A stretch of 64,000 bases of DNA from Alphaproteobacteria bacterium (lineage in GTDB: Bacteria; Pseudomonadota; Alphaproteobacteria; CAISOG01): NCBI GenBank assembly GCA_044375625.1, contig JBILMH010000001.1, forward strand, positions 8,667 through 72,666, read 5' to 3'. Position 1 is the first letter of the stretch. Each line of letters opens with the position of its first letter. Below, one piece after another: positions 17,759-54,723 of the stretch. A model generated the notes under the pieces. That model worked only from the letters and a program-made list of their open reading frames with translations, was not told where the DNA came from and ran no database searches. The position numbers and the translations under genes were made by a program.

Positions 17759-19039
17759 ATGGCCATGACCAATCAATTGACAGATATCGAAAAAAAAATC
17801 CTGGAACACGAAGCGTGGGTTGATGGAGAGGAAACAGGATCTCGTTTGGTGCTTTCTGGTCGGTCCTTAGCAAGAATCCAAATGCCTAATCGCATGCTTA
17901 AGTCGGCAAAAATGATGGGTTGTGATCTGCAAGAGGGCAATTTTGCAGGAACCGATCTAAGTTTTTCAGATTTGTTTTGTTCCAATTTGGAACGCGCCAA
18001 TTTTTCCGAAGCCAATTTGATGCGTGCCAGCATGCGTGGGGTTAAAATTCGTAACGCCAATCTACGTGGAGCCAATTTAACGGAGGCCGATTTGCGGGCG
18101 GGGGCGATTGTTCGCCATGTTAATGAGGCCGCGGAAGAGGTCAGGACGGATCTGTCGTTCAGTCGGTTGGATGACGCCGTTATGCCCAATGTTAATCTAA
18201 ATGGCGCGGATTTGCGCAATGCCATCATGACAGGTGCTAACCTTAAAGGGGCTTATCTGCGCGGATGCAACTTGAGTTCCGTGGATTTGCGTAATGCGGA
18301 TTTATCCAATGTGGACTTGTCCAATGCTGATTTAAGCTTTGCCAATCTTAAGGGGTCATCCCTAAGCTATGCTGTCATCAGTCGTACCAGTTTTGACAAC
18401 GCTGTTGTTGATAATATGGATATCACGGGCACAGTCTTTGATGATAGCGCCCCGGCTGAACTGGTTGACATGCTGCAAGATAAAAGCCGCAACCAACCCC
18501 GCAAATTGGATGAGGTGTTGGCCAACCATGTGCAATGGATTGATTCACAGGGTGCCAAGGGGCAGCGGGCGATATTGGTCAAACGGGATCTTAGTAGTTT
18601 TGATTTGAATCATGTCAATCTTAGTGGGGCTGATTTACAAGAAGTTTTACTAATTGAGGCCAATTTGTTCCGTGCACTTTTGGTCATGACGAATCTTAGT
18701 GCCGCCAACTTGCGGGATGCCAATCTGTCCAAAGCCAATTTGGCTGGTGCCAATTTAACAGGTGCTGACCTTAGCCATGCCGATCTTAGAGATGCTGTTC
18801 TTAAGGCTATCATTTCGCGTGCCAGTAGTGCGCTCCCAGGTTCCAAATTGTGGCCAACCAACCTTAGCAATGCCAGGTTGGTGAACAGCAATCTTAATGG
18901 CGTGAATTTGACGGGGGCAAACCTGGCTGGTGCTGACCTTCGGGGAGCCAGCCTGCGTCGCGCCGTGCTTATAGGTGCCAATCTGACGGGGGCTAATATC
19001 GATAAAGCCGACTTCACCGATGCCATTTTGAAACAATAG
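17759..19039 (+). CDS. pentapeptide-repeat protein (426 aa), paralog of 53353..54723
   Basis: Long runs of A(D/N)LxxANLxGADLxxA…, with a central non-repeat linker (HVQWIDSQGAKGQRA). GC is lower than the flanks. Confidence 0.8.
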   Translation: MAMTNQLTDIEKKILEHEAWVDGEETGSRLVLSGRSLARIQMPNRMLKSAKMMGCDLQEGNFAGTDLSFSDLFCSNLERANFSEANLMRASMRGVKIRNANLRGANLTEADLRAGAIVRHVNEAAEEVRTDLSFSRLDDAVMPNVNLNGADLRNAIMTGANLKGAYLRGCNLSSVDLRNADLSNVDLSNADLSFANLKGSSLSYAVISRTSFDNAVVDNMDITGTVFDDSAPAELVDMLQDKSRNQPRKLDEVLANHVQWIDSQGAKGQRAILVKRDLSSFDLNHVNLSGADLQEVLLIEANLFRALLVMTNLSAANLRDANLSKANLAGANLTGADLSHADLRDAVLKAIISRASSALPGSKLWPTNLSNARLVNSNLNGVNLTGANLAGADLRGASLRRAVLIGANLTGANIDKADFTDAILKQ

Positions 19040-30000: not shown

Positions 30001-30125
30001 GGGGGCATCCTGTAAGTAAGAGTTCCGATTGTGGTTCTAGTCATAGCGCTTTCGTTGCCTGCCCGCAACATTATGTATGCGCGGATGTAGCACGGGGGTT
30101 ATCGCATCCCATCTCTCCGTCTGTT

Positions 30126-30290
30126 GTCATCCTACTCCTTGTAAGTAGGATCTCCTTAGGCTTTTACCGATTGTGCAGCGGTTAGGGTTTGAGACCCTAC
30201 CCATAAAGAGTAGGATCTATGCGATGGTATCGCCTGAAAAGCGGTGAGGATTTGAGATTCTACCCACAGGGGGTAGAATGACATTGTGAG
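30126..30290. repeat. cluster of short palindromic (hairpin) elements shared with 38846..38944 (GTCATCCTACTCCTTGTAAGTAGGATCTCC; GATTCTACCC…GGGTAGAATGACATTGTGA)
   Basis: Each element is an imperfect palindrome. Near-identical copies recur ~8.7 kb away, in the corC-hflC intergenic region. Confidence 0.8.
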
Positions 30291-30342
30291 GTGGCGACAT
30301 TGCGTCCATTCTTTACCCCGCCCCCGCCATTATTTGCCCCCG

Positions 30343-30410
30343 CCCCTGTCTTTTTTCGCCCCCTCCCCTGTCTTTTTTCGCCCCCTCCCCTGTCTTTTTT
30401 CGCCCCCTCC
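30343..30410. repeat. 22-bp tandem repeat x3 (CCCCTGTCTTTTTTCGCCCCCT), followed by a CCCCCTCCC…GGGAGGGGG palindrome
   Basis: Direct reading gives units at 30343, 30365 and 30387. A related sequence (TTTTTTGTTCCCCCTCCCCCAACC…GGGAGGGGG) occurs at 38465-38515. Confidence 0.85.
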
Positions 30411-30541
30411 CCCAACCCCCTCCCGCAAGTGGAGGGGGAACACTCCCACCCACATCGTGCCTTGTCATCTGGACTTGTCATCCAGAGGGGGCATGCTTAA
30501 ACTTAGTTTTTGTGCCGCAATAGCAGATGGGGTGGGGTTGG

Positions 30542-35231: not shown

Positions 35232-35335
35232 TGGGGTGATAAAAAAATTCCCCAAATGTTCATTGTGTACAAACAAACAAAATGGTACAATTGCCCTTGG
35301 GTCAAACAAAATATTGTTTGTTGGAAAGGTGTGAC

Positions 35336-35605
35336 ATGAGCCGTATATCAATTGAAGTAAGTCCAGAGCAGCACCAACGCCTTAAGGCTTTTGCTGCTTT
35401 GCGCGGTGAAACTATCAAAGATTACATTTTGGGCTGTGCCTTGCCGCCATCAGCGTCTGCAGAGGTTTTGACGGAGGAACAGGCCTTGCAAGAGCTTGAG
35501 CAACTATTGCTTCCTCGTGTTGAAGCGATTAAACGCGGCGAGATCAGTGCCAAAAGCTTTGAGGAAATTATCGCCGAAGCACGCAATGAGGCGGCAGCGT
35601 TGTGA
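35336..35605 (+). CDS. parD: type II antitoxin, ParD/RHH-like
   Basis: Small protein MSRISIEVSPEQHQRLKAFAALRGETIKDYIL (ribbon-helix-helix-like) overlapping the downstream toxin. Confidence 0.6.
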   Translation: MSRISIEVSPEQHQRLKAFAALRGETIKDYILGCALPPSASAEVLTEEQALQELEQLLLPRVEAIKRGEISAKSFEEIIAEARNEAAAL

Positions 35606-35913
35606 AACCTTTTTGCATTTCTGTTGCAGCTGAAAAAGATTTAAAACAGATTTGGCGATATACCGCTCAACATTATGGTATATTGCAAGCGGATTTATAT
35701 ACTAATGTTCTGCTGTTAGGGTGTCAAAAAATCGCCCAGCAACCGTTGGTCTTTCTCTCTCTTAGATTGGCCAACCAAGATTTTAGAGTGTATCGATATA
35801 AGAATCATTATATTTTGTATTTAGTTGCTGATGATAAGGTTGTAATTGTTGCATTTTTTCATGAGCGCATGGATATAATGGTTCGACTAAGAGCAAGGTT
35901 AGAAAATAGTTAA
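35602..35913 (+). CDS. parE: type II toxin, ParE/RelE family
   Basis: 103 aa. The start overlaps the antitoxin stop (GTGA). Typical ParE layout (…AEKDLKQIWRYTAQHYG…VYRYKNHYILYLVADDKVVIVAFFHERMD); lower GC. Confidence 0.7.
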   Translation: MKPFCISVAAEKDLKQIWRYTAQHYGILQADLYTNVLLLGCQKIAQQPLVFLSLRLANQDFRVYRYKNHYILYLVADDKVVIVAFFHERMDIMVRLRARLENS

Positions 35914-36998: not shown

Positions 36999-37551
36999 TT
37001 CGGCTATGCCACCCAATATCCCGATAAATCTTATCATCGATGATGCCGATTGGGAGCAGATGTTGCCCGACGCGTTGGCTGTTGCAGGGCAGGCGTGGCA
37101 GCAGGTGGCGGCGCTTCACCCAGAGCTGACCAAGCATCGGATCGACATCGTGTTGGCGGATGATGACTTGCTGCACCAACTCAACCGCGACCATCGGGGG
37201 CGGGATAAGCCCACCAACGTGCTATCCTTTTCCTACGGCGATGACGATGCGCCCCCCGTGCCTGTCGAACAGCTGGCCGAACAGATGGCCGAGCAACCAA
37301 CGGGGGAGCTGTATTTGGCTGCGGGCGTGGTGGCGGCTGAGGCGGCGGCGGCGGGGCTGTCGATCGCGCATCATTTTGCCCATTTGATTGTTCACGGTTT
37401 GTTACATTTGTTGGGTTACGATCATGAGCTGGATGAGGAAGCGGAGGAAATGGAAGCCTTGGAAACAAAAATTCTGGCGCAAATGGGCATTGCCAACCCC
37501 TATGACGCTTGCGACACCAACCATAAGACACCAGGCAGGATCCCATCATGA
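36982..37551 (+). CDS. ybeY: endoribonuclease YbeY (rRNA maturation factor)
   Basis: Zinc-binding motif HLIVHGLLHLLGYDHE. Confidence 0.9.
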   Translation: MTQNPDSAMPPNIPINLIIDDADWEQMLPDALAVAGQAWQQVAALHPELTKHRIDIVLADDDLLHQLNRDHRGRDKPTNVLSFSYGDDDAPPVPVEQLAEQMAEQPTGELYLAAGVVAAEAAAAGLSIAHHFAHLIVHGLLHLLGYDHELDEEAEEMEALETKILAQMGIANPYDACDTNHKTPGRIPS

Positions 37552-38423
37552 CCACCATTTGGCGCAGCATTGTTCATAAGCTTAAGCCTGAATCGGGTGA
37601 GCCAGGCTTACGCGCCGCCCTGGAGGGGTTGATTGAGGATCATAGCGATAACACCCGCCCCCTGGGGGAGGAGGAGAGGGAGCTGATCGCCAACACCATT
37701 AAGCTGCGCAACCTGACCGTGCGCGATGTGATGGTGCCCCGCCCCGACATTCTGGCCATTGATGAGGATGTGACGATTAAGGATTATTTGGCGTTGCAGG
37801 GGGATGATGGATTCTCACGCCTGCCGGTGTACCGCGAAACCCTGGATAACGTTATCGGCATGGTGCATATCAAAGACCTGTTGCCGCACTGGGGCGAAAC
37901 CGCGACCCCGATTAAAGACCTGATCCGTGAGGTTTTGTATGTGCCGCCATCGATGCAGGCCTATGATTTGCTGTTCCAGATGAAGCTGACCCGCACCCAT
38001 TTGGCGGTGGTGGTCGATGAATTTGGTGGCACCGACGGCCTGGTCACCATCTCTGACCTGATTGAGGAAATTGTTGGCGAAATTGAAGATGAACATGACG
38101 CGGCGGATCAGGGCAACATCTCCAGCCGCAACGATGGCAGCTTTTTTGTGCGCGCCCGCACCCCGTTGGAGGAGTTGGATCAATCGCTGAATTTAAATTT
38201 GGCCGAAGAGGTTGAGGAGGATATCGACACCGTTGGCGGCCTGGTCAGCACCCTGGCGGGTGAAATTCCCAAACGGGGGCAGGTGGTCGAACTGCCCGAA
38301 AAAAATCTAAGCTTTGAGGTGTTGGATGGCGACGGCCGCCGCCTGAAATGGCTGCGGGTTTGGGTAAACGCTGGCTCTGGCGCCGATGTTGGGGGTGGGG
38401 CAGGGGGTGGTACGGCTTCTTAA
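37548..38423 (+). CDS. corC: HlyC/CorC family transporter-associated protein (CBS pair + CorC_HlyC domain)
   Basis: CBS-domain region followed by the transporter-associated domain, overlapping the ybeY stop. It carries an unusual Gly-rich C-terminal tail. Confidence 0.85.
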
Positions 38424-38425
38424 AG

Positions 38426-39100
38426 CTTTTTTCAGGTCGGTTGCCCGCTTTTGTTCCCCTCCCTTGTTTTTTTTGTTCCCCCTCCCCCAACCTCCTCCCG
38501 CCAGGGGAGGGGGAATATCTGAACACACTCTCTCCGCATGGGGAGGGGGAATACACTCCACCCTTGCACTGGGGGATTGTTGTCGCGCCGCTCTAATGCT
38601 ATGAAAATGATACGAAAAACACTCCACCCTTGCGGGGGAGTCGCGGGGCGCAAGCCCAGCGGTGGGGGGTAAGTAGGGCTTCGTCATCTCCGTGTTTTTT
38701 GAAAAGGGGGGCGGAGATCCAGAGCCCTGTTGTCGCTTTTCCAAGCCCTAGCACCGCATGGATCCCCCGCCTTCGCGGAGGATGATAACTTGAGAAGGCC
38801 TTTTCAGTTTTGTCATCCTAGCCCCGCCTTTTCCGCCGCGCCGCTGTCATCCTACTCCTTGTGAGTAGGATCTCCTTACCGTCCGTGCCGCTTGTACAGC
38901 GGTTAGGATTTGAGATTCTACCCATAAAGGGTAGAATGACATTGTGATGTGGATGCATCGCACTCATCCACTCCGCCTCTCCGCCGTCATCTCCGTGTTT
39001 TTTTGAAAAGGGGGGCGGAGATCCAGAGCCCTGTTGCCGCCTTTCCGCGCCCTAGCATCGCATGGATCCCCCGCTTTCGCAGAGGATGACAGTCTATCCC
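38426..39100. repeat. composite intergenic repeat region: ~108-bp direct repeat (38681..38786 and 38985..39092) with terminal inverted repeats flanking palindromic elements shared with 30126..30290
   Basis: The two ~108-bp copies are ~95% identical and begin/end TCATCTCCG…CGGAGGATGA. The internal elements GTCATCCTACTCCTTGTGAGTAGGATCTCC and GATTCTACCCATAAAGGGTAGAATGACATTGTGA are near-identical to the recA-ilvE intergenic copies. Confidence 0.85.
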
Positions 39101-39101
39101 C

Positions 39102-39968
39102 CTATTTCTTGCCGCCACCTTGATCCATGAACTTAAAGAATCGGCTGTTGGGGGACAGGATAAGGCTGGTATCGCTGTTGGCCAGGCTGTTGCGATAAGC
39201 CTCCAACGAACGGTAATAGCTGTAAAATTCGGGATCGATGTTCAGGGCGTCGGCATAGTTTTTAATCGCCTCCGCATCACCCTCCCCCCGCAATTTTTGC
39301 GCATCGCGGGTGGCCTCAGCCAATAGGATGGTGCGCTCACGGTCAGCGTTGGCGCGAATTTCTGCCCCCATTTGCGCGCCCTTAGCCCGAAATTCTTTGG
39401 CTTCACGATCCCGCTCACTGATCATGCGGTTGTAGATAGCCTGGCTGGTTTCCTGCGGCAGGTCGGCACGGCGAATCCGCACATCGACAATTTCTATGCC
39501 AAAGGGGCGACTGGCCTCACCCACCTCACCGCGAATATCGGCCATAATCCGCACCCGATCGTCTGACAGCACGCTGCCCAGGCTGACATTGCCCAACACC
39601 CGCCGCACGCTGGAATCAATAATGTTGCTAAGACGAATATCGGCGTTGTTCTCATTCCGCACGGTTTGGAAAAATTTCAACGGATCCTTGATGGCATAGC
39701 GGGCAAAGGTATCGACCTCAATCCTCTTTTGGTCCGCCAGGGTGATTTGCTTGCCAGACGGTTCCACATCCAACAACCGCTTGTCAAAGCGCATCACCTC
39801 CTCCCACGGCAATTTGGCCTTAAGCCCAGGGGTTTGGATAACCCGTTTGGCCTCACCAAATTGCAGGACAAGTGCCTGTTCTGTCTCCTGAATCGTGAAC
39901 AGGCTGCTGCTGACCAGCATCAACAGGGCAAAGCCTGCAAACAGAGCGATCAATTGTTGCCTAGGCAT
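39102..39968 (-). CDS. hflC: protease modulator HflC (SPFH/band 7)
   Basis: N-terminal TM segment plus an SPFH domain. It lies immediately downstream of hflK with touching coordinates. Confidence 0.9.
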   Translation of the reverse strand: MPRQQLIALFAGFALLMLVSSSLFTIQETEQALVLQFGEAKRVIQTPGLKAKLPWEEVMRFDKRLLDVEPSGKQITLADQKRIEVDTFARYAIKDPLKFFQTVRNENNADIRLSNIIDSSVRRVLGNVSLGSVLSDDRVRIMADIRGEVGEASRPFGIEIVDVRIRRADLPQETSQAIYNRMISERDREAKEFRAKGAQMGAEIRANADRERTILLAEATRDAQKLRGEGDAEAIKNYADALNIDPEFYSYYRSLEAYRNSLANSDTSLILSPNSRFFKFMDQGGGKK

Positions 39969-41209
39969 TAGCGGCCTCCATCAGTTTTTGGTGGGTTGCT
40001 GGCCGGTGCGCCGCCAGATCCGTTGCCCAGGCCGTTCAGCGGCAGATAAGGAACCACTCCGTGACTGGATGCCGATGGATCCACCACCACCTTGCGGGCG
40101 TTTTTCAACACCTGCTCCATGGTTTCCAGATACATCCGTTCCCGCGTCACCTCGCGCGAGGATTTGTAGGCGTTGTACACCGATAGATAGCGTTCGGCGT
40201 CCCCCTTAGCGGCGTTAATCACCTGTTCGCGATAGGCGGCAGCATCCTGACGGAATTTGGCCGCCTCCCCCCGTGCGCGGGGCAGAATATCGTTGCGATA
40301 ACCCTCAGCCTCATTGGCCATCCGTTCCATATCGGCGCGGGCGCGTTGCACCTCATTAAAGGCATCAACAACTTGCGAGGGGGGATCCACCGCCTGCAAC
40401 TGCACCTGGCTGATGGTAATGCCCGTTTGATACTCATCCAACAGCCGTTGCATCAGCGATTGCACATCGGTTTCGATGCGGTTGCGCCCCTCCGTAAAGG
40501 CCTTTTGGATGGCGGTCTGGCCGATAATTTCCCGCATTGCGCTTTGCGCCACCATCTGAATAGTTTTTTCAGGATCCTGCAGGCGGAAAAGATATTTTTC
40601 TGGATCACCAATCCGCCACAGCACGGTGAAATCGATATCCACCAAATTTTCATCGCCCGTCAGCATGATATTGGTGCCGCGATCATCGCGATTGGTATCC
40701 TTGCCGCGCCGCGTTTCAGAGGTTTGGCGCGACCCAATTTCTAGGCGGTTTTCGCGGGTAACATAGGGCAACTTCACCGATTCGATGGGATAGGGCAGGT
40801 GAAAGCGCAAGCCTGGTTGGGTGGTGCGGACATAGGCGCCAAAGCGCAGCACGACGCCCTGCTGATCCGGCTGAACCCGATAAAGTCCTGTGGAGAGCCA
40901 CAGCAGCAGGAACACAAGGCCAGCTAGCAACAGCCCCTGCCGGCCGCTGCCCGCGCTGCCACCACCACCGCCTGCACCACCAGCAAAAAATGGCCGTAAC
41001 TTTTGCTGCAGCTGACGCAACAGATCTTCCAGGTCGGGACCACCACTGCCACCACCGCCGCCAGGGCTGGGGCGACGGGGAGGCTCCTCAGGGCGACGAC
41101 CACCGCCGCCCCCCGTACCCCAAGGGTTGCCACCATTGCCAGTCCCCCAGGGGTTGTTCATATGTTTCCACATTATCAAAGCTTCTTTGCGTGACTTGGT
41201 TGGTGACAA
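39968..41209 (-). CDS. hflK: protease modulator HflK (SPFH/band 7) with Gly-rich N-terminal region
   Basis: N-terminus MNNPWGTGNGGNPWGTGGGGG…, a TM segment and an SPFH domain (…DAFNEVQRARAD…). Confidence 0.9.
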   Translation of the reverse strand: MSPTKSRKEALIMWKHMNNPWGTGNGGNPWGTGGGGGRRPEEPPRRPSPGGGGGSGGPDLEDLLRQLQQKLRPFFAGGAGGGGGSAGSGRQGLLLAGLVFLLLWLSTGLYRVQPDQQGVVLRFGAYVRTTQPGLRFHLPYPIESVKLPYVTRENRLEIGSRQTSETRRGKDTNRDDRGTNIMLTGDENLVDIDFTVLWRIGDPEKYLFRLQDPEKTIQMVAQSAMREIIGQTAIQKAFTEGRNRIETDVQSLMQRLLDEYQTGITISQVQLQAVDPPSQVVDAFNEVQRARADMERMANEAEGYRNDILPRARGEAAKFRQDAAAYREQVINAAKGDAERYLSVYNAYKSSREVTRERMYLETMEQVLKNARKVVVDPSASSHGVVPYLPLNGLGNGSGGAPASNPPKTDGGR

Positions 41210-42553: not shown

Positions 42554-42619
42554 TAATAGTTATCAGTTGTGCAATAATAATCGATATGAAAACGGTGCAT
42601 GGTGCTGAGGGGGGTAGCA

Positions 42620-42883
42620 ATGGCGGGAAGTTATGAGCTGGGCAGTCAGCTTAGCCTATTTGTTGATGATCTGGTGGCAGCGGGGCGCTACAATTCCAAA
42701 AGTGAGGTGGTTCGTCAGGGGTTGCGCCTGCTGCAGGAGCGGGAGCAGTTGCGGCAGATTAAACTGGATGAGGTGCGAAAAGCCTTTCAGGAAGGCATTA
42801 ACAGTAGTCGGGGCAACACGGCTGAGGCGGTGTTTGATCGGTTAGAGGCCAAATATGCGGCGATGATCGCGGTCAGCGATTGA
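42620..42883 (+). CDS. parD: type II antitoxin ParD (COG3609-like)
   Basis: …LSLFVDDLVAAGRYNSKSEVVRQGLRLLQERE… is a classic ParD fold sequence, overlapping the downstream ParE. Confidence 0.8.
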   Translation: MAGSYELGSQLSLFVDDLVAAGRYNSKSEVVRQGLRLLQEREQLRQIKLDEVRKAFQEGINSSRGNTAEAVFDRLEAKYAAMIAVSD

Positions 42884-43188
42884 TGCTTCCCGTTGTTTTT
42901 TCACACAGGGCGGCTGATGATTTAGAGGCGATTGCCGATTTCATCGCACAGGATACCCCCGCCCGTGCCGTAGCGTTTTTGCAGAAGTTGCGTCAGCAAT
43001 GTCTGAACATCGGGCGTTTTCCGAACGCGCAGCCCCGTTTTCCTGAATTGGGGGATCGGGCGCGGGTCATGCCCTACAAAAACTATGTGGTGCTGTACCA
43101 GGTTTTGGACGATGCGGTTTCGATCGAACGGATTATCCATGGGGCAAGAGATATCCTAAGCCTGATTCATCATGACGGATCCACTTAG
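42880..43188 (+). CDS. parE: type II toxin ParE
   Basis: 102 aa, …AADDLEAIADFIAQDTPARAVAFLQKLRQQCLNIGRFPNAQPRFPELGDRARVMPYKNYVVLYQVLDDAVSIERIIHGARD; ATGA overlap with parD. Confidence 0.8.
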   Translation: MMLPVVFSHRAADDLEAIADFIAQDTPARAVAFLQKLRQQCLNIGRFPNAQPRFPELGDRARVMPYKNYVVLYQVLDDAVSIERIIHGARDILSLIHHDGST

Positions 43189-45465: not shown

Positions 45466-46368
45466 CTAGGGCGATTTTAATGTTGGATTTACAGAGTTCA
45501 GTGTAACAGGCTGTTTTAAAATGGCTAAGCGATAATGGCCAATATGTTGGAATCCCACGGCCTCATAGGCTTTGGCGGCGGCAGCGGAATCGGTGAAGAG
45601 GATGGCTTTTTCTACACCCCTCTCCCGTGCCTGTACCAGGGTTAAGGCCAGTAGGGTTCGGGCATAGCCCTTGCAGCGATGCTCTGGCGGTGTCCATACA
45701 CCCCCAATTTGCACAATATCTGGCAGGACAACACTAAAACCACTCAAACACACGGGGTTATCGTCAATGAAAAGCACCCAATAGTCTTTGCTTTTTAAAA
45801 CTTTTTTTACAAAGCTTTCTACTAATGTATCTAGATTCTGATTATCTATTGCGGCTAAAGCTTCTATTTCGTAGGCTTTGCGCCATTGAAATAGAAGGTG
45901 GCGATCAATGTCTTTGACACTAGTCATGCGATATTTTTTATCGACTTGATAAGTGGGTAACACCAATTCTTTTAAATTAATTGAGTACAAAAACTCATTC
46001 GTATTTAGGGCAGATGGCGCGTCGGATAGCCCCAACTCCTTAATGACCTGATCTGCTTGGTGATTGACCCCTAGGACGCCAGCAATCGGGCGGCTAACCA
46101 TTGCTTTGAAATCTTGCAACAGATTGCTTAACACCTCGGGATTGCTGGCCTGCATCATAATGTTGTTGTTCCAATAGTGAGCCAGAACGCCGTTGAGGGA
46201 TCCTGCCGCATCAAACGATCCCCAATACTCTCCCTCATAGGGCTGTCCGTTGTAGGTTAGACCTGCCTCCCGTAGGTTGGATCGTATATACATGCAAGTG
46301 GCAGTATAGCCAGACAGAAAAGACTCAATGGCGGTTTCATCACGCGCCTGCAGGACACGGACGGTCAT
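45466..46368 (-). CDS. two-domain GNAT-family acetyltransferase
   Basis: The C-terminal half has a canonical GNAT motif (…IGGVWTPPEHRCKGYARTLL…); the N-terminal half is a degenerate GNAT fold. The central part drops to ~40-45% GC. It is inserted between ribBA and ribE. Confidence 0.65.
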   Translation of the reverse strand: MTVRVLQARDETAIESFLSGYTATCMYIRSNLREAGLTYNGQPYEGEYWGSFDAAGSLNGVLAHYWNNNIMMQASNPEVLSNLLQDFKAMVSRPIAGVLGVNHQADQVIKELGLSDAPSALNTNEFLYSINLKELVLPTYQVDKKYRMTSVKDIDRHLLFQWRKAYEIEALAAIDNQNLDTLVESFVKKVLKSKDYWVLFIDDNPVCLSGFSVVLPDIVQIGGVWTPPEHRCKGYARTLLALTLVQARERGVEKAILFTDSAAAAKAYEAVGFQHIGHYRLAILKQPVTLNSVNPTLKSP

Positions 46369-46982
46369 AATTTTTTCTCCAAATGCGTGCTGCCTACAGC
46401 CAGCTGGCGGGCGACGTAGCGGGCCAGCATATCAACCTCCAGATTGACTTGATCCCCCACCCGCAAATCGGAAAAGGTGGTGTGGTGCCAGCTGTGCGGA
46501 ATCAGCATGATTTGAAAACCATCGGGCAACAAGCTGTTGATGGTCAGCGAGGTGCCGTTGAGCGCCACCGACCCCTTCGCGGCAAAAAAGGGCAGCAGTT
46601 CGGGCGGCACGCGCAGCGCTATCTGCCAATAATCAGCCTGGGCGGTAATTTCGGTAATGGTGGCCAGGCCATCAACATGGCCAAAGACAAAATGGCCATC
46701 GATGGTGTCCCCCAGTTTGAGGGAGGGTTCCAGGTTCAGGCGGCTGCCCACTTGCCAGCTGGCCGCCGTCGTGCATGCCAGCGTTTCGGGCGACAACTGC
46801 ACCTCAAAATGCCCTGCATCGCCCGCCACCACGGTCAGGCATATACCGTTGCAGGCGATCGACGCGCCCAGTTTTGCCCACGCCGCCGCGTGCGGGGTGG
46901 CGATGCTTAGCCGCAGGCTGCTATCCGATTCCCAGGTTAAGCGGTCGATGGTGCCAACCGCCTGAATAATCCCTGCAAACAT
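46365..46982 (-). CDS. ribE: riboflavin synthase alpha subunit
   Basis: MFAGIIQAVGTI… and a second lumazine-binding repeat (…GHFVFGHVDG…). Confidence 0.9.
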   Translation of the reverse strand: MFAGIIQAVGTIDRLTWESDSSLRLSIATPHAAAWAKLGASIACNGICLTVVAGDAGHFEVQLSPETLACTTAASWQVGSRLNLEPSLKLGDTIDGHFVFGHVDGLATITEITAQADYWQIALRVPPELLPFFAAKGSVALNGTSLTINSLLPDGFQIMLIPHSWHHTTFSDLRVGDQVNLEVDMLARYVARQLAVGSTHLEKKL

Positions 46983-53352: not shown

Positions 53353-54723
53353 TTGTTGCTGGGGAAATCGATGGCTGGTTCAAAACATTCGGTGTCGTCA
53401 AAAGAACTGATAGCACAGATTCTTAGCCATAACAGTTGGCTTGCAGGGCGGGCAGGATCCAGAGCCAATCTGTCGTTGATGGATCTAAGTGGTTTGGGGC
53501 TAAGTTCCATCAACCTTAGTCAGGCTAAGATGGATGGCGCCAACCTGACCAGCGCGCTGTTGGTGGAAACCAACCTTAGCCAGGCCGATTTGTTTGCATC
53601 GAATCTAACAGGCTGTGATCTTAGGCAGGCAAAATTGGTTGATACCAATCTGCGTGGCGCCGTGTTGTATAAGGCGGATCTTCGCCGGGCGGATCTAACG
53701 CGGATAGATTTGCGTCCAGGAGCTTTTTTAACCCATTTTTCTAAAAAACAGGCAGCGAAGGAGAAACCCTCAGCATCGAACAAAATTTCTGAACCCGTTG
53801 CGAATTTGCAGCGGGCAAAGCTGGATGATGCCCTGATGGTTGATGCTTTGCTTTGTTACGCCGATTTTAACGGCGCATCGTTGCAGCGTATCAATTTAAC
53901 TGGTGCTGATTTAACCGGTGCAGACCTTAGCAATGCTGACCTTACGGGTGCCTGTTTGCGTAACGTCAAATTGGCTCAAGCCCGCATTCATAATACGATT
54001 CTGCGTAACGCCGACCTTACAGGCGTGCTGATATCCGATGAACAGCTACAAGCGATGGATCTTTTTGGCGCTTATGCAAGATTGCCTGTAGTGGGTAAAC
54101 AATTGGCTGTCGAAGAATCGGATGTCGATATTTCAGAAAAAATTCTTCGTAGCCTAAGCGTGAATTTGCAAGATTGTATTAGGCAGCATGAGCAATGGGT
54201 TCAGTCGGGGGGTGTGCATGGCAAGCGTGCTGATCTTTCTAACCAAAACCTTCAGGCACTTAGATTGGATTCATTGAATTTAACAGGTGCAAAGCTGGCC
54301 AATTGCCAATTGCAATCTGCCAGTTTGGTTAAAGCCGTCTTAACCATTGCCGATCTGCGCGGAGCTGTTTTGTGTGATGCCGTGCTGGAGGATGCGATGC
54401 TGGAGGGCAGCAATTTATCGGGCGCGAATCTTAAGGGGGCAAATCTTAAGGGGGCGCGCCTAGCCAGCAATGCCCATCGGGCAACCAACCTTTCCAACGC
54501 CAATTTGCAGCATGCGGATTTAAGCGGCGCTGACCTTAGTCATACCAATTTAAGAAATGCCGATCTTCGCAATACCAATTTGGCGCGCACCAATTTGTCG
54601 GGTGCAGACCTTAGTGATGCAAACCTTAGCGATACATTGTTGGATAAAGCGGTTTTGAATGGCGCCATTCTGGACAATGCCAAATTTGGTCTTAGTGAAT
54701 CCATGGCCGCCATCATCAGCTAA
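53353..54723 (+). CDS. pentapeptide-repeat protein (456 aa), paralog of 17759..19039
   Basis: Extensive A(D/N)LxxxNLxGA repeats and a central linker HEQWVQSGGVHGKRADL resembling the HVQWIDSQGAKGQRA linker of the other copy. GC is lower than the flanks. Confidence 0.8.
   Translation: MLLGKSMAGSKHSVSSKELIAQILSHNSWLAGRAGSRANLSLMDLSGLGLSSINLSQAKMDGANLTSALLVETNLSQADLFASNLTGCDLRQAKLVDTNLRGAVLYKADLRRADLTRIDLRPGAFLTHFSKKQAAKEKPSASNKISEPVANLQRAKLDDALMVDALLCYADFNGASLQRINLTGADLTGADLSNADLTGACLRNVKLAQARIHNTILRNADLTGVLISDEQLQAMDLFGAYARLPVVGKQLAVEESDVDISEKILRSLSVNLQDCIRQHEQWVQSGGVHGKRADLSNQNLQALRLDSLNLTGAKLANCQLQSASLVKAVLTIADLRGAVLCDAVLEDAMLEGSNLSGANLKGANLKGARLASNAHRATNLSNANLQHADLSGADLSHTNLRNADLRNTNLARTNLSGADLSDANLSDTLLDKAVLNGAILDNAKFGLSESMAAIIS

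Follow-up and report, generated by a model that had tools for sequence, protein, structure and literature searches.

What kind of element fills the spacer between the convergent corC-like and hflC-like genes of the alphaproteobacterial DNA analysed here, a stretch of 64,000 nt that we call the window? An original prediction, made from the letters of the window alone, took it for an array resembling miniature inverted-repeat transposable elements (MITEs). The prediction that the spacer consists of composite, dispersed, non-coding repeats was correct, the same unit architecture is present at other loci of related genomes, and the two flanking genes are indeed convergent, with Pfam matches to CBS/CorC_HlyC and to Band_7 (HflC-like). 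The MITE label did not hold. Instead, the spacer is probably a mosaic array, similar to the NIME arrays of Neisseria, built of hairpin repeats of the Ssn type, i.e. NTS and Ssn-related motifs (SRM). The repeat class and its enzyme are already published, with Alphaproteobacteria listed as carriers, and the array is a new example. Its anatomy, dispersal, gene association and turnover between strains were observed directly.

The two repeat units are direct copies located at 38683-38787 (unit 1) and 38986-39091 (unit 2). Their alignment resulted in 97 identities in 106 columns, confirming the two copies, predicted at about 108 bp, with an identity of 91.5% rather than the ~95% claimed; the common ungapped block comprises 91 nt with 92% identity. 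Apart from these two places, long sub-patterns of the units were not found in the window, nor were they found in shuffled sequences. Both units open with GTCATCTCCG and contain CGGAGATCC...GGATCCCCCG, just as predicted, whereas the predicted end, CGGAGGATGA, is true of unit 1 only: unit 1 ends with ...CGGAGGATGAT, the other strand reading ATCAT and not GTCAT, and unit 2 with ...CAGAGGATGAC. The 198-nt segment between the units (38788-38985) shares blocks of 50-94 nt with 77-86% identity with 30167-30324 upstream of recA, in agreement with the predicted relationship of the core to the elements there. The extra motif copies and the duplicated segment that had been noticed upstream of unit 1 were also found, GGGGAGGGGGAA and its complement occurring three times at 38476-38551 (0.5 expected) and AAWACACTCCACCCTTGC being present at 38550 and 38616. 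With two mismatches allowed the 13-mer ACTCCACCCTTGC alone is not above chance, and the 18-nt exact-context duplicate is. The small open reading frames (ORFs) at 38245-38785 on both strands had been judged not to be genes, and we likewise rejected a coding role for them, as their translations derive from nothing but the repeats and the 3' end of corC, over which they lie.

The units are bounded by inverted elements, as the original prediction stated, but each end is a separate, self-contained hairpin, so that what was read as "terminal inverted repeats" is a pair of independent hairpins pointing in opposite directions. The basic module of ~28-30 nt consists of a (C/T)GTCAT head, a palindrome of 7-9 bp, a loop of 4-5 nt and an ATCC tail. 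Three stem types exist in the lineage: T1 (CCTACCC/GGGTAGG; module GTCATCCTACYC-N5-GRGTAGGATC), T2 (CCTCCGC/GCGGRGG; module GTCATC(C)TCCGCG-MAG-GCGGRG(G)ATCC) and T3 (CTCCCGC/GCGGGAG; module GTCACTCCCGCGCAGGCGGGAGYCCAG), which was seen in relatives. Each unit is made of two outward-facing hairpins around a 33-nt centre in the order T2a, centre, inverted T2b; the T2b head of unit 1 is mutated from GTCAT to ATCAT, and relatives carry a compact form of T2a, GTCATCTCCGCGCAGGCGGAGATCCAG. Scanning the window for GTCAT followed by a perfect palindrome returned just the corC-hflC and recA spacers, apart from a few unrelated weak matches, and by the orientation of GTCAT head and ATCY tail seven hairpins or half-sites were identified in the former and four in the latter. 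Folded as single-stranded DNA (ssDNA), the T1 hairpins have 9-bp stems and 5-nt loops with z-scores of -4.7 to -5.2, and the T1 doublet in the segment between the units reaches a z-score of -6.8, none of 200 shuffled sequences being as stable.

This architecture corresponds to repeats described by Chenal et al. 2025 (Nat Commun 16:2388, PMC11893778), where the NTS of Neisseria is given as CGTCATTCCCGCGMAVGCGGGAATCYRG, including the dRS3 of NIME arrays, its variant NTSvar as CGTCATACTCGGGNNNNNCCCGAGTATC with the geometry GTCAT+7+5+7+ATC, and the SRM as the degenerate string HGTCWYN(0-2)YYVSBRHN(0-5)WNVSBRGN(0-2)RNCYNB. According to the same work the 94-aa GIY-YIG protein SsnA binds the hairpin solely as ssDNA and cuts a few nucleotides upstream, the ssn gene is typically flanked by repeats, and Rhizorhabdus, Sphingomonas, Wolbachia, Rickettsia and Devosia are SRM-rich Alphaproteobacteria (PMC11893778). 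The T1 geometry is exactly that of NTSvar, and T2 and T3 match the NTS, T3 being one compensated base pair apart from the consensus. As the SRM string is non-specific in the window once a mismatch is allowed (9 matches observed, 8 expected), we relied on structural hairpin scans and on relatives. In the closest metagenome-assembled genome (MAG) the string has 10 exact matches in 108 kb (0.55 expected) and in a second MAG five in 48 kb (0.15 expected). An SRM match, CGTCACTCCCGCGCAGGCGGGAGTCCAG, is located in the orthologous corC-hflC spacer of L003, L004 and L053 (L numbers denote loci and contigs collected from relatives and metagenomes), and T2b modules with an intact head in L010, L039 and L051, otherwise identical to that of unit 1, also fit the string.

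The hairpins are also associated with a candidate enzyme gene. Four loci that were caught by the hairpin pattern alone (L026, L046, L093 and L163) carry GIY-YIG ORFs of ~100 aa at a distance of at most 1.2 kb, and we infer a chance expectation of ~0.1 for these loci, if each genome of a few Mb has one gene of this kind. GTCAT hairpins were found beside or around the gene in all of the seven ssn-like loci examined, which come from several lineages, one of them being that of the closest relative of the window's organism. The protein encoded in L026 (P0001, 102 aa) matches the Pfam GIY-YIG family (E 1.5e-12), with the NCBIfam search returning only sub-threshold models that contain GIY-YIG; its structural model has a GIY-YIG fold (pLDDT 89), the best PDB matches being UPF0213 BH0048 and the Slx1 nuclease domain. 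The spacing of Y10, Y21 and E68 (Y-11-Y-47-E) equals that of the catalytic residues Y6, Y17 and E64 of Neisseria meningitidis SsnA. In the closest relatives the P0001 gene is located between pepA and holC, and in five contigs, one of which is from the same sample as allele L004, a T1 inverted pair starts 63 nt after its stop codon, measuring 173 nt from outer end to outer end. Distant homologues are encoded in Phenylobacterium, Pseudoponticoccus, a Bacteroidota MAG and two metagenome contigs, where GTCAT hairpins with lineage-specific stems again flank or adjoin the gene.

Eighteen metagenome contigs carry a gene for an HflC protein identical to that of the window, allowing a comparison of closely related strains. 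L001 and L005 have the sequence of the window (at least 99.995% identity), L002 is 99.8% identical, L003, L004 and L006 are 92-93% identical, and L053, a MAG piece labelled "uncultured Holosporaceae bacterium Loclat_bin-11545", is 93.5% identical and syntenic. Homology to the ~93% relatives (92-93.5%) ends at 38427 and restarts at 39092, the spacer in between being unalignable. Their spacers of 445, 591 and 568 nt contain like modules in another order. In five differing alleles of the corC-hflC spacer the array occupies the syntenic position with varying content and number of modules; a 92-nt T1 doublet lies at the same position in the orthologous spacer of L053, and a half-site comparable to that of the window, ATCATCCTAGCTCCG, is kept in L003, L004 and L053. 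Over 20.9 kb the window and L002 exhibit just two differences. One is the deletion in L002 of a 22-nt tandem-repeat unit in the recA spacer (30343-30364), the other consists of 19 substitutions, all of which are located in 38723-38755, i.e. exactly in the 33-nt centre of unit 1 between the hairpins. The replacement centre of L002 belongs to the other centre subtype, which is seen elsewhere, and as the 33-nt variant lies inside unique flanks a chimeric origin of the swap is unlikely at k=141. Junctions in half-hairpins were identified in L003 (GTCATCCTACCC followed by TTCCC) and in L009 (GATCCTACCCA followed by ATATT), where synteny breaks at the array of the MAG VEQJ. Between strains, change is found mainly in the arrays and has hairpins as its borders, the spacer turning over very fast between close strains. 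The hairpin-bounded strain difference lends support to an older proposal, by which arrays of this kind are hot spots of recombination.

Further copies, as the original prediction had anticipated, are present at many loci of related MAGs, both as T1/T2 modules and as doublets. Scanning one genome per species for the T1 pattern yielded 79 loci, among them 20, 13 and 10 contig pieces from three alphaproteobacterial MAGs as well as single matches in Bradyrhizobium, Sphingomonas and other genera. The closest MAG has 41 T1 matches on 20 contig pieces; the window's own genome is sampled by 64 kb, which hold two arrays. Convergent pairs account for 36 of 109 T1 matches, with a modal length of 92 nt, relatives contribute 17 further T1 doublets of 91-95 nt, and T2 doublets with the architecture of units 1 and 2 are located in L020, L032 and L051. 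Centre subtype A has T2a or T3 as one flanking hairpin and T1 or T2b as the opposite one. As hairpin types and centres combine freely between loci, the repeats are combinatorial mosaics of the BIME/NIME type and not one transposing unit. The T2b 27-mer GTCATCCTCCGCGAAGGCGGRGGATCC is present as an exact match in at least 120 metagenome contigs (L086-L205) from soil, peat, rhizosphere and freshwater, usually as left end of a ~98-nt palindromic element whose right hairpin has a different, compensated stem; among the matches listed, 66 of 113 contigs with the 27-mer have an inverted GTCAT-hairpin partner, the median outer length being 98 nt. Across all loci we counted 81 distinct GTCAT-7-5-7 palindromes, many with compensated stems.

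By analogy with the work on Neisseria, Ssn would bind and cleave these hairpins, and effects on recombination or DNA uptake may follow. In the mechanism that we propose each module would fold into a hairpin whenever its DNA becomes single-stranded, be it in replication, repair, recombination or as incoming DNA. The lineage's own small Ssn-type GIY-YIG nuclease would then bind the hairpin and cut a few nucleotides upstream, and repeated hairpin-bounded breakage, recombination or gene conversion would shuffle modules and centres, giving rise to a hypervariable spacer and an occasional synteny breakpoint.

Several observations weigh against the assignment to the Ssn-type repeats. The SRM string has no exact match in the window, each T2b module being one position off (the ATCAT head in one, CTG in the stem of the other) and the T2a loops being expanded to 19-20 nt, and we therefore take the copies of the window as partly decayed; several of the T2 copies may be decayed sites. 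T1 fits the NTSvar geometry and not the SRM string, having a C where R is needed. The folds of the whole units are unexceptional (z-scores of -2.0 and -0.2). No ssn-like gene was detected in the window by tblastn (E<=1), and its presence in the exact genome of the window is suggested by relatives with 92-94% identity, one of which comes from the same sample as an allele with the identical HflC protein. The label of P0001 as a putative Ssn-type nuclease is based on its size, the Pfam match, the predicted fold and the residue spacing. Finally, L002 is a metagenome assembly, and the centre swap rests on one contig.

Features of the corC-hflC array and of its sister array at recA (positions in the window)
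Feature	Coordinates	Strand	Description and basis
corC-like gene	37548..38423	+	CBS and CorC_HlyC domains (Pfam); left boundary of the array
C-rich/G-rich hairpin module	38449..38553		TTCCCCCTCCCC (38476-38487) pairs with GGGGAGGGGGAA (38504-38515 or 38540-38551)
Two copies of AAWACACTCCACCCTTGC	38550..38633 (38550-38567, 38616-38633)	+	Duplicated 3' extension of the C-rich module
Unit 1 left hairpin, T2a	38683..38722	+	GTCATCTCCG, 19-nt T-rich expanded loop, CGGAGATCCAG; 7-bp stem, weak DNA fold
Unit 1 centre, 33 nt	38723..38755		Subtype A (...GCCCTAGCACC); subtypes recur at other loci
Unit 1 right hairpin, T2b inverted	38758..38787	-	TATCATCCTCCGCGAAGGCGGGGGATCCAT; 9-bp stem, 4-nt loop, z -2.7
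Half-site GTCATCCTAGCCCCGCC	38812..38830	+	GTCAT head, second palindrome arm missing
T1 inverted doublet, 95 nt	38846..38940		GTCAT-hairpin scan and DNA fold
T1 hairpin of the doublet, GTCATCCTACTCCTTGTGAGTAGGATC	38846-38872	+	GTCAT-hairpin scan
Hairpin in the T1-doublet centre, CCGCTTGTACAGCGG	38888-38902		Within the 95-nt doublet
Inverted T1 hairpin of the doublet, GTCATTCTACCCTTTATGGGTAGAATC	38914-38940	-	GTCAT-hairpin scan
Linker ATTGTGATG...CTCTCCGCC	38941..38985	+	Holds the conserved leaders next to the GTCAT heads on either side
Unit 2 left hairpin, T2a	38986..39026	+	20-nt expanded loop; alignment and hairpin scan
Unit 2 centre, 33 nt	39027..39059		Subtype A; alignment
Unit 2 right hairpin, T2b inverted	39062..39091	-	TGTCATCCTCTGCGAAAGCGGGGGATCCAT; one stem mismatch; ends 10 nt from the hflC stop codon
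hflC-like gene	39102..39968	-	Band_7/SPFH (Pfam); right boundary of the array
Array in the divergent recA/ilvE-like spacer	30115..30490		Repeats and hairpin scan
T1 hairpins of the recA spacer	30126-30152 (+), 30256-30282 (-)	both	GTCAT-hairpin scan
22-nt tandem repeat GCCCCCTCCCCTGTCTTTTTTC	30336-30412		3.5 copies, upstream of the ilvE-like gene
C-rich hairpin of the recA spacer	30403-30440		Repeat comparison
Hairpin GTCATCTGGA..TCCAGA	30464		recA spacer

The C-rich module is a third dispersed repeat family without a GTCAT head. It is 76% identical to 30374-30440, its sequence CCCCCTCCCGCCAGGGGAGGGGGAACACACTCC is also present in the relatives L066, L078, L080 and L035, and its 3' extension AAWACACTCCACCCTTGC follows the module in relatives as well. 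The CCCCCTCCCGCCAGGGGAGGGGGAACACACTCC family co-occurs with Ssn-type hairpins at the listed window modules (38449-38553 and 30403-30440) and in these four relatives. In the sister array at recA the copy number of the 22-nt repeat differs among strains (3.5, 2.5, 3 and 1), and the T1 block is present or absent by replacement, not as a clean insertion versus an empty site. In the 92% identical strains L004 (19761-20139) and L006 (11257-11635) an SBP_bac_3 gene follows the ilvE-like gene, replacing recA; the breakpoint of the recA adjacency is the G-rich arm of the C-rich hairpin module.

In the surroundings of the array further differences were observed. Contig L009 (3300-3450; MAG VEQJ01000071, 88% identical) carries corC, the array and then directly sequence matching the window from 43231 onward; hflC, hflK, the ParA-like gene and the ParDE genes are missing from this site, and the junction lies in a T1 hairpin loop. 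In the window two ParD/ParE toxin-antitoxin pairs (35282-35913 and 42599-43188) flank the phoH-ybeY-corC/hflKC block, and these pairs are variable in sister strains, L003 being without the first pair and without ParE of the second. A gene for a 300-aa acetyltransferase (~45472-46398) is present in the window, L001, L002 and L005 and not in L003 and L004, where the blastn alignment breaks; no GTCAT hairpins were seen at its borders. The HflK-like gene, which is next after the hflC-like gene, contains Gly-rich, GC-rich repeats in its N-terminal region (40927-41062), HflK being called with 315-413 aa among strains. The largest direct-repeat families of the window come from two genes rich in repeats of 15-nt periodicity (17990-18940 and 53560-54640) that resemble pentapeptide-repeat genes. 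L206 contains an 89-nt hairpin doublet (866-954; GTCATTCCCACGAAGGTGGGAATCC ... GGATCCCCGCCTGCGCGGGGATGAC) followed by an AT-rich stretch, and a 387-aa ORF without Pfam match (1085-2248), which is shared by L206, L208 and L210 and not by L207.

The outward-facing doublets of ~92-107 nt may themselves replicate or recombine as the units of a system that the GIY-YIG nuclease drives, comparable to REPIN-RAYT, with Ssn nicking at ssDNA hairpins promoting both the copying of doublets to new sites and the exchange of the segment between the hairpins. We put this forward tentatively. If it were true, the arrays would be programmed hot spots of local recombination in many Alphaproteobacteria, and in the centre swap of unit 1 one such event would have been caught directly in nature.

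Short conserved heads next to imperfect palindromes, inverted doublets of ~92-107 nt, extragenic mosaic clusters with alternative linkers and the lack of a target-site duplication are features that the array has in common with REP elements and their doublets (REPIN, BIME), which are spread by RAYT, a Y1-type transposase of the IS200/IS605 kind. That the array belongs to these elements is nevertheless unlikely. The head is GTAG in E. coli and Pseudomonas but GTCAT here, as in the NTS, and the hairpins fit the NTS/SRM definitions. In a tblastn search with E. coli RayT, a single distant query, the 1.32 Mb of hairpin-selected loci, which come from partly sampled genomes, and the window gave nothing better than E 4.5, whereas GIY-YIG genes were repeatedly found beside hairpins in the very same data; the associated gene encodes a GIY-YIG nuclease here and a Y1 (HUH) transposase there. 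Moreover, Group 1 of the RAYTs, a large group, is reported to be rare in Alphaproteobacteria (PMC5581495).

Equally improbable, if taken as the full explanation, is a role at the RNA level, where the repeats would be bidirectional terminators or 3' stabilisers of the corC and hflC mRNAs, or a small RNA, although such a role is compatible with an Ssn-type array. REP-type hairpins stabilise upstream mRNA in enterobacteria, the array fills a convergent spacer up to 10 nt from the hflC stop codon, and stable hairpins form on both strands. Scans for terminators and promoters found nothing beyond chance in the units, there being no intrinsic-terminator signature in them and one weak site in the spacer against 1.5 expected. 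Rfam gave no match at the gathering threshold in the whole window and, in the spacer at E<=10, only noise (miRNA and snoRNA models with 15-20 bits), and a tRNA/tmRNA scan detected none. The same modules are present in the divergent promoter spacer upstream of recA, and the lack of conservation of the corC-hflC spacer between sister species argues against a specific RNA gene.

As classical MITEs the units would be non-autonomous derivatives of an insertion sequence (IS), moved by a DDE transposase and accompanied by target-site duplications. They do resemble MITEs such as the Correia elements of Neisseria or RUP/BOX-type repeats in being ~100 nt long, intergenic, multicopy and bounded by inverted ends, and they occupy several loci, but we consider this explanation highly unlikely. 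A target-site duplication cannot be defined, as the sequences abutting GTCAT are conserved leader and linker modules common to unrelated loci (CATCACAAT or CCRCYCCGYT before GTCAT), and in the recA spacer the allele without the T1 block has other sequence in its place and does not form an empty site. The ends are autonomous GTCAT-headed hairpins that also occur singly and pair with differing partners and centres in combinatorial fashion. Compared end to end, the two ends of a unit align at only ~22-29 of 45 positions, and away from the hairpin core the match is poor. No transposase or parent IS was seen near any of the repeat copies examined.

Least probable of all, in our judgement, are target sites of a recombinase, with arrays growing by repeated integration and excision, a process that could coexist with recognition by Ssn. 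Its precedent is the dRS3/NTS of Neisseria, a documented target of a phage recombinase used by filamentous prophages (PMC1797815), and the junctions at hairpin tips in L003 and, together with the synteny break, in L009 would suit it. No recombinase or prophage adjoins any array examined, a search of 2.9 million viral contigs did not find the T2 27-mer, and blastn with unit 2 gave no plasmid match. A CRISPR array was rejected on account of the alternating orientation, the irregular spacing, centres that recur elsewhere and the absence of cas genes among the neighbours, and integron attC sites were rejected as neither cassettes nor an integrase lie in the vicinity.

The first description of Ssn nucleases and of their hairpin repeats dates from 2025. 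The array, probably one of Ssn-type hairpins, would place the same system in an uncultured environmental lineage of the Alphaproteobacteria. It offers a natural comparison, otherwise identical strains differing inside the arrays only and one of the differences being bounded exactly by two hairpins, and it provides concrete candidate substrates (T1, T2 and T3) together with a candidate enzyme, P0001. For annotation, ORFs across the repeats are spurious, and spacers of this kind will break assemblies and synteny.

Among known systems, NIMEs consist of dRS3 repeats (20 bp, ATTCCCN8GGGAAT) in inverted orientation flanking RS segments of ~50-150 bp, and were described as specific for Neisseria (Bentley et al. 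2007, PMC1797815). As in NIMEs, short palindromic repeats flank segments of 20-150 nt that fall into families, and the arrays are syntenic with content and length varying by strain, segments apparently being exchanged by recombination at the palindromes. Unlike NIMEs, the arrays are short (seven hairpins or half-sites) with centres of 33-41 nt, and the literal dRS3 sequence is absent from the array, the outer stem being ATCCT/AGGAT or similar. By its sequence organisation the array thus works like a NIME without being a member.

With the SRM/NTS repeats the array shares the hairpin of ~28 nt with CGTCAT head and C-containing tail, the T1 geometry of NTSvar, and a T3 module, in the orthologous spacer of sister strains, that is one compensated pair from the NTS; copies of relatives match the published string, hairpins cluster around genes, and the hairpins adjoin or surround a gene for a small single-domain GIY-YIG protein. 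It differs in its host, an uncultured freshwater/groundwater lineage of the Alphaproteobacteria that is not named in Chenal et al., in its stem sequences, in the partly degenerate copies of the window and in its enzyme, which is a candidate. A further difference is the arrangement of the hairpins, which here mostly form outward-facing doublets of ~92-107 nt around a conserved or exchangeable centre.

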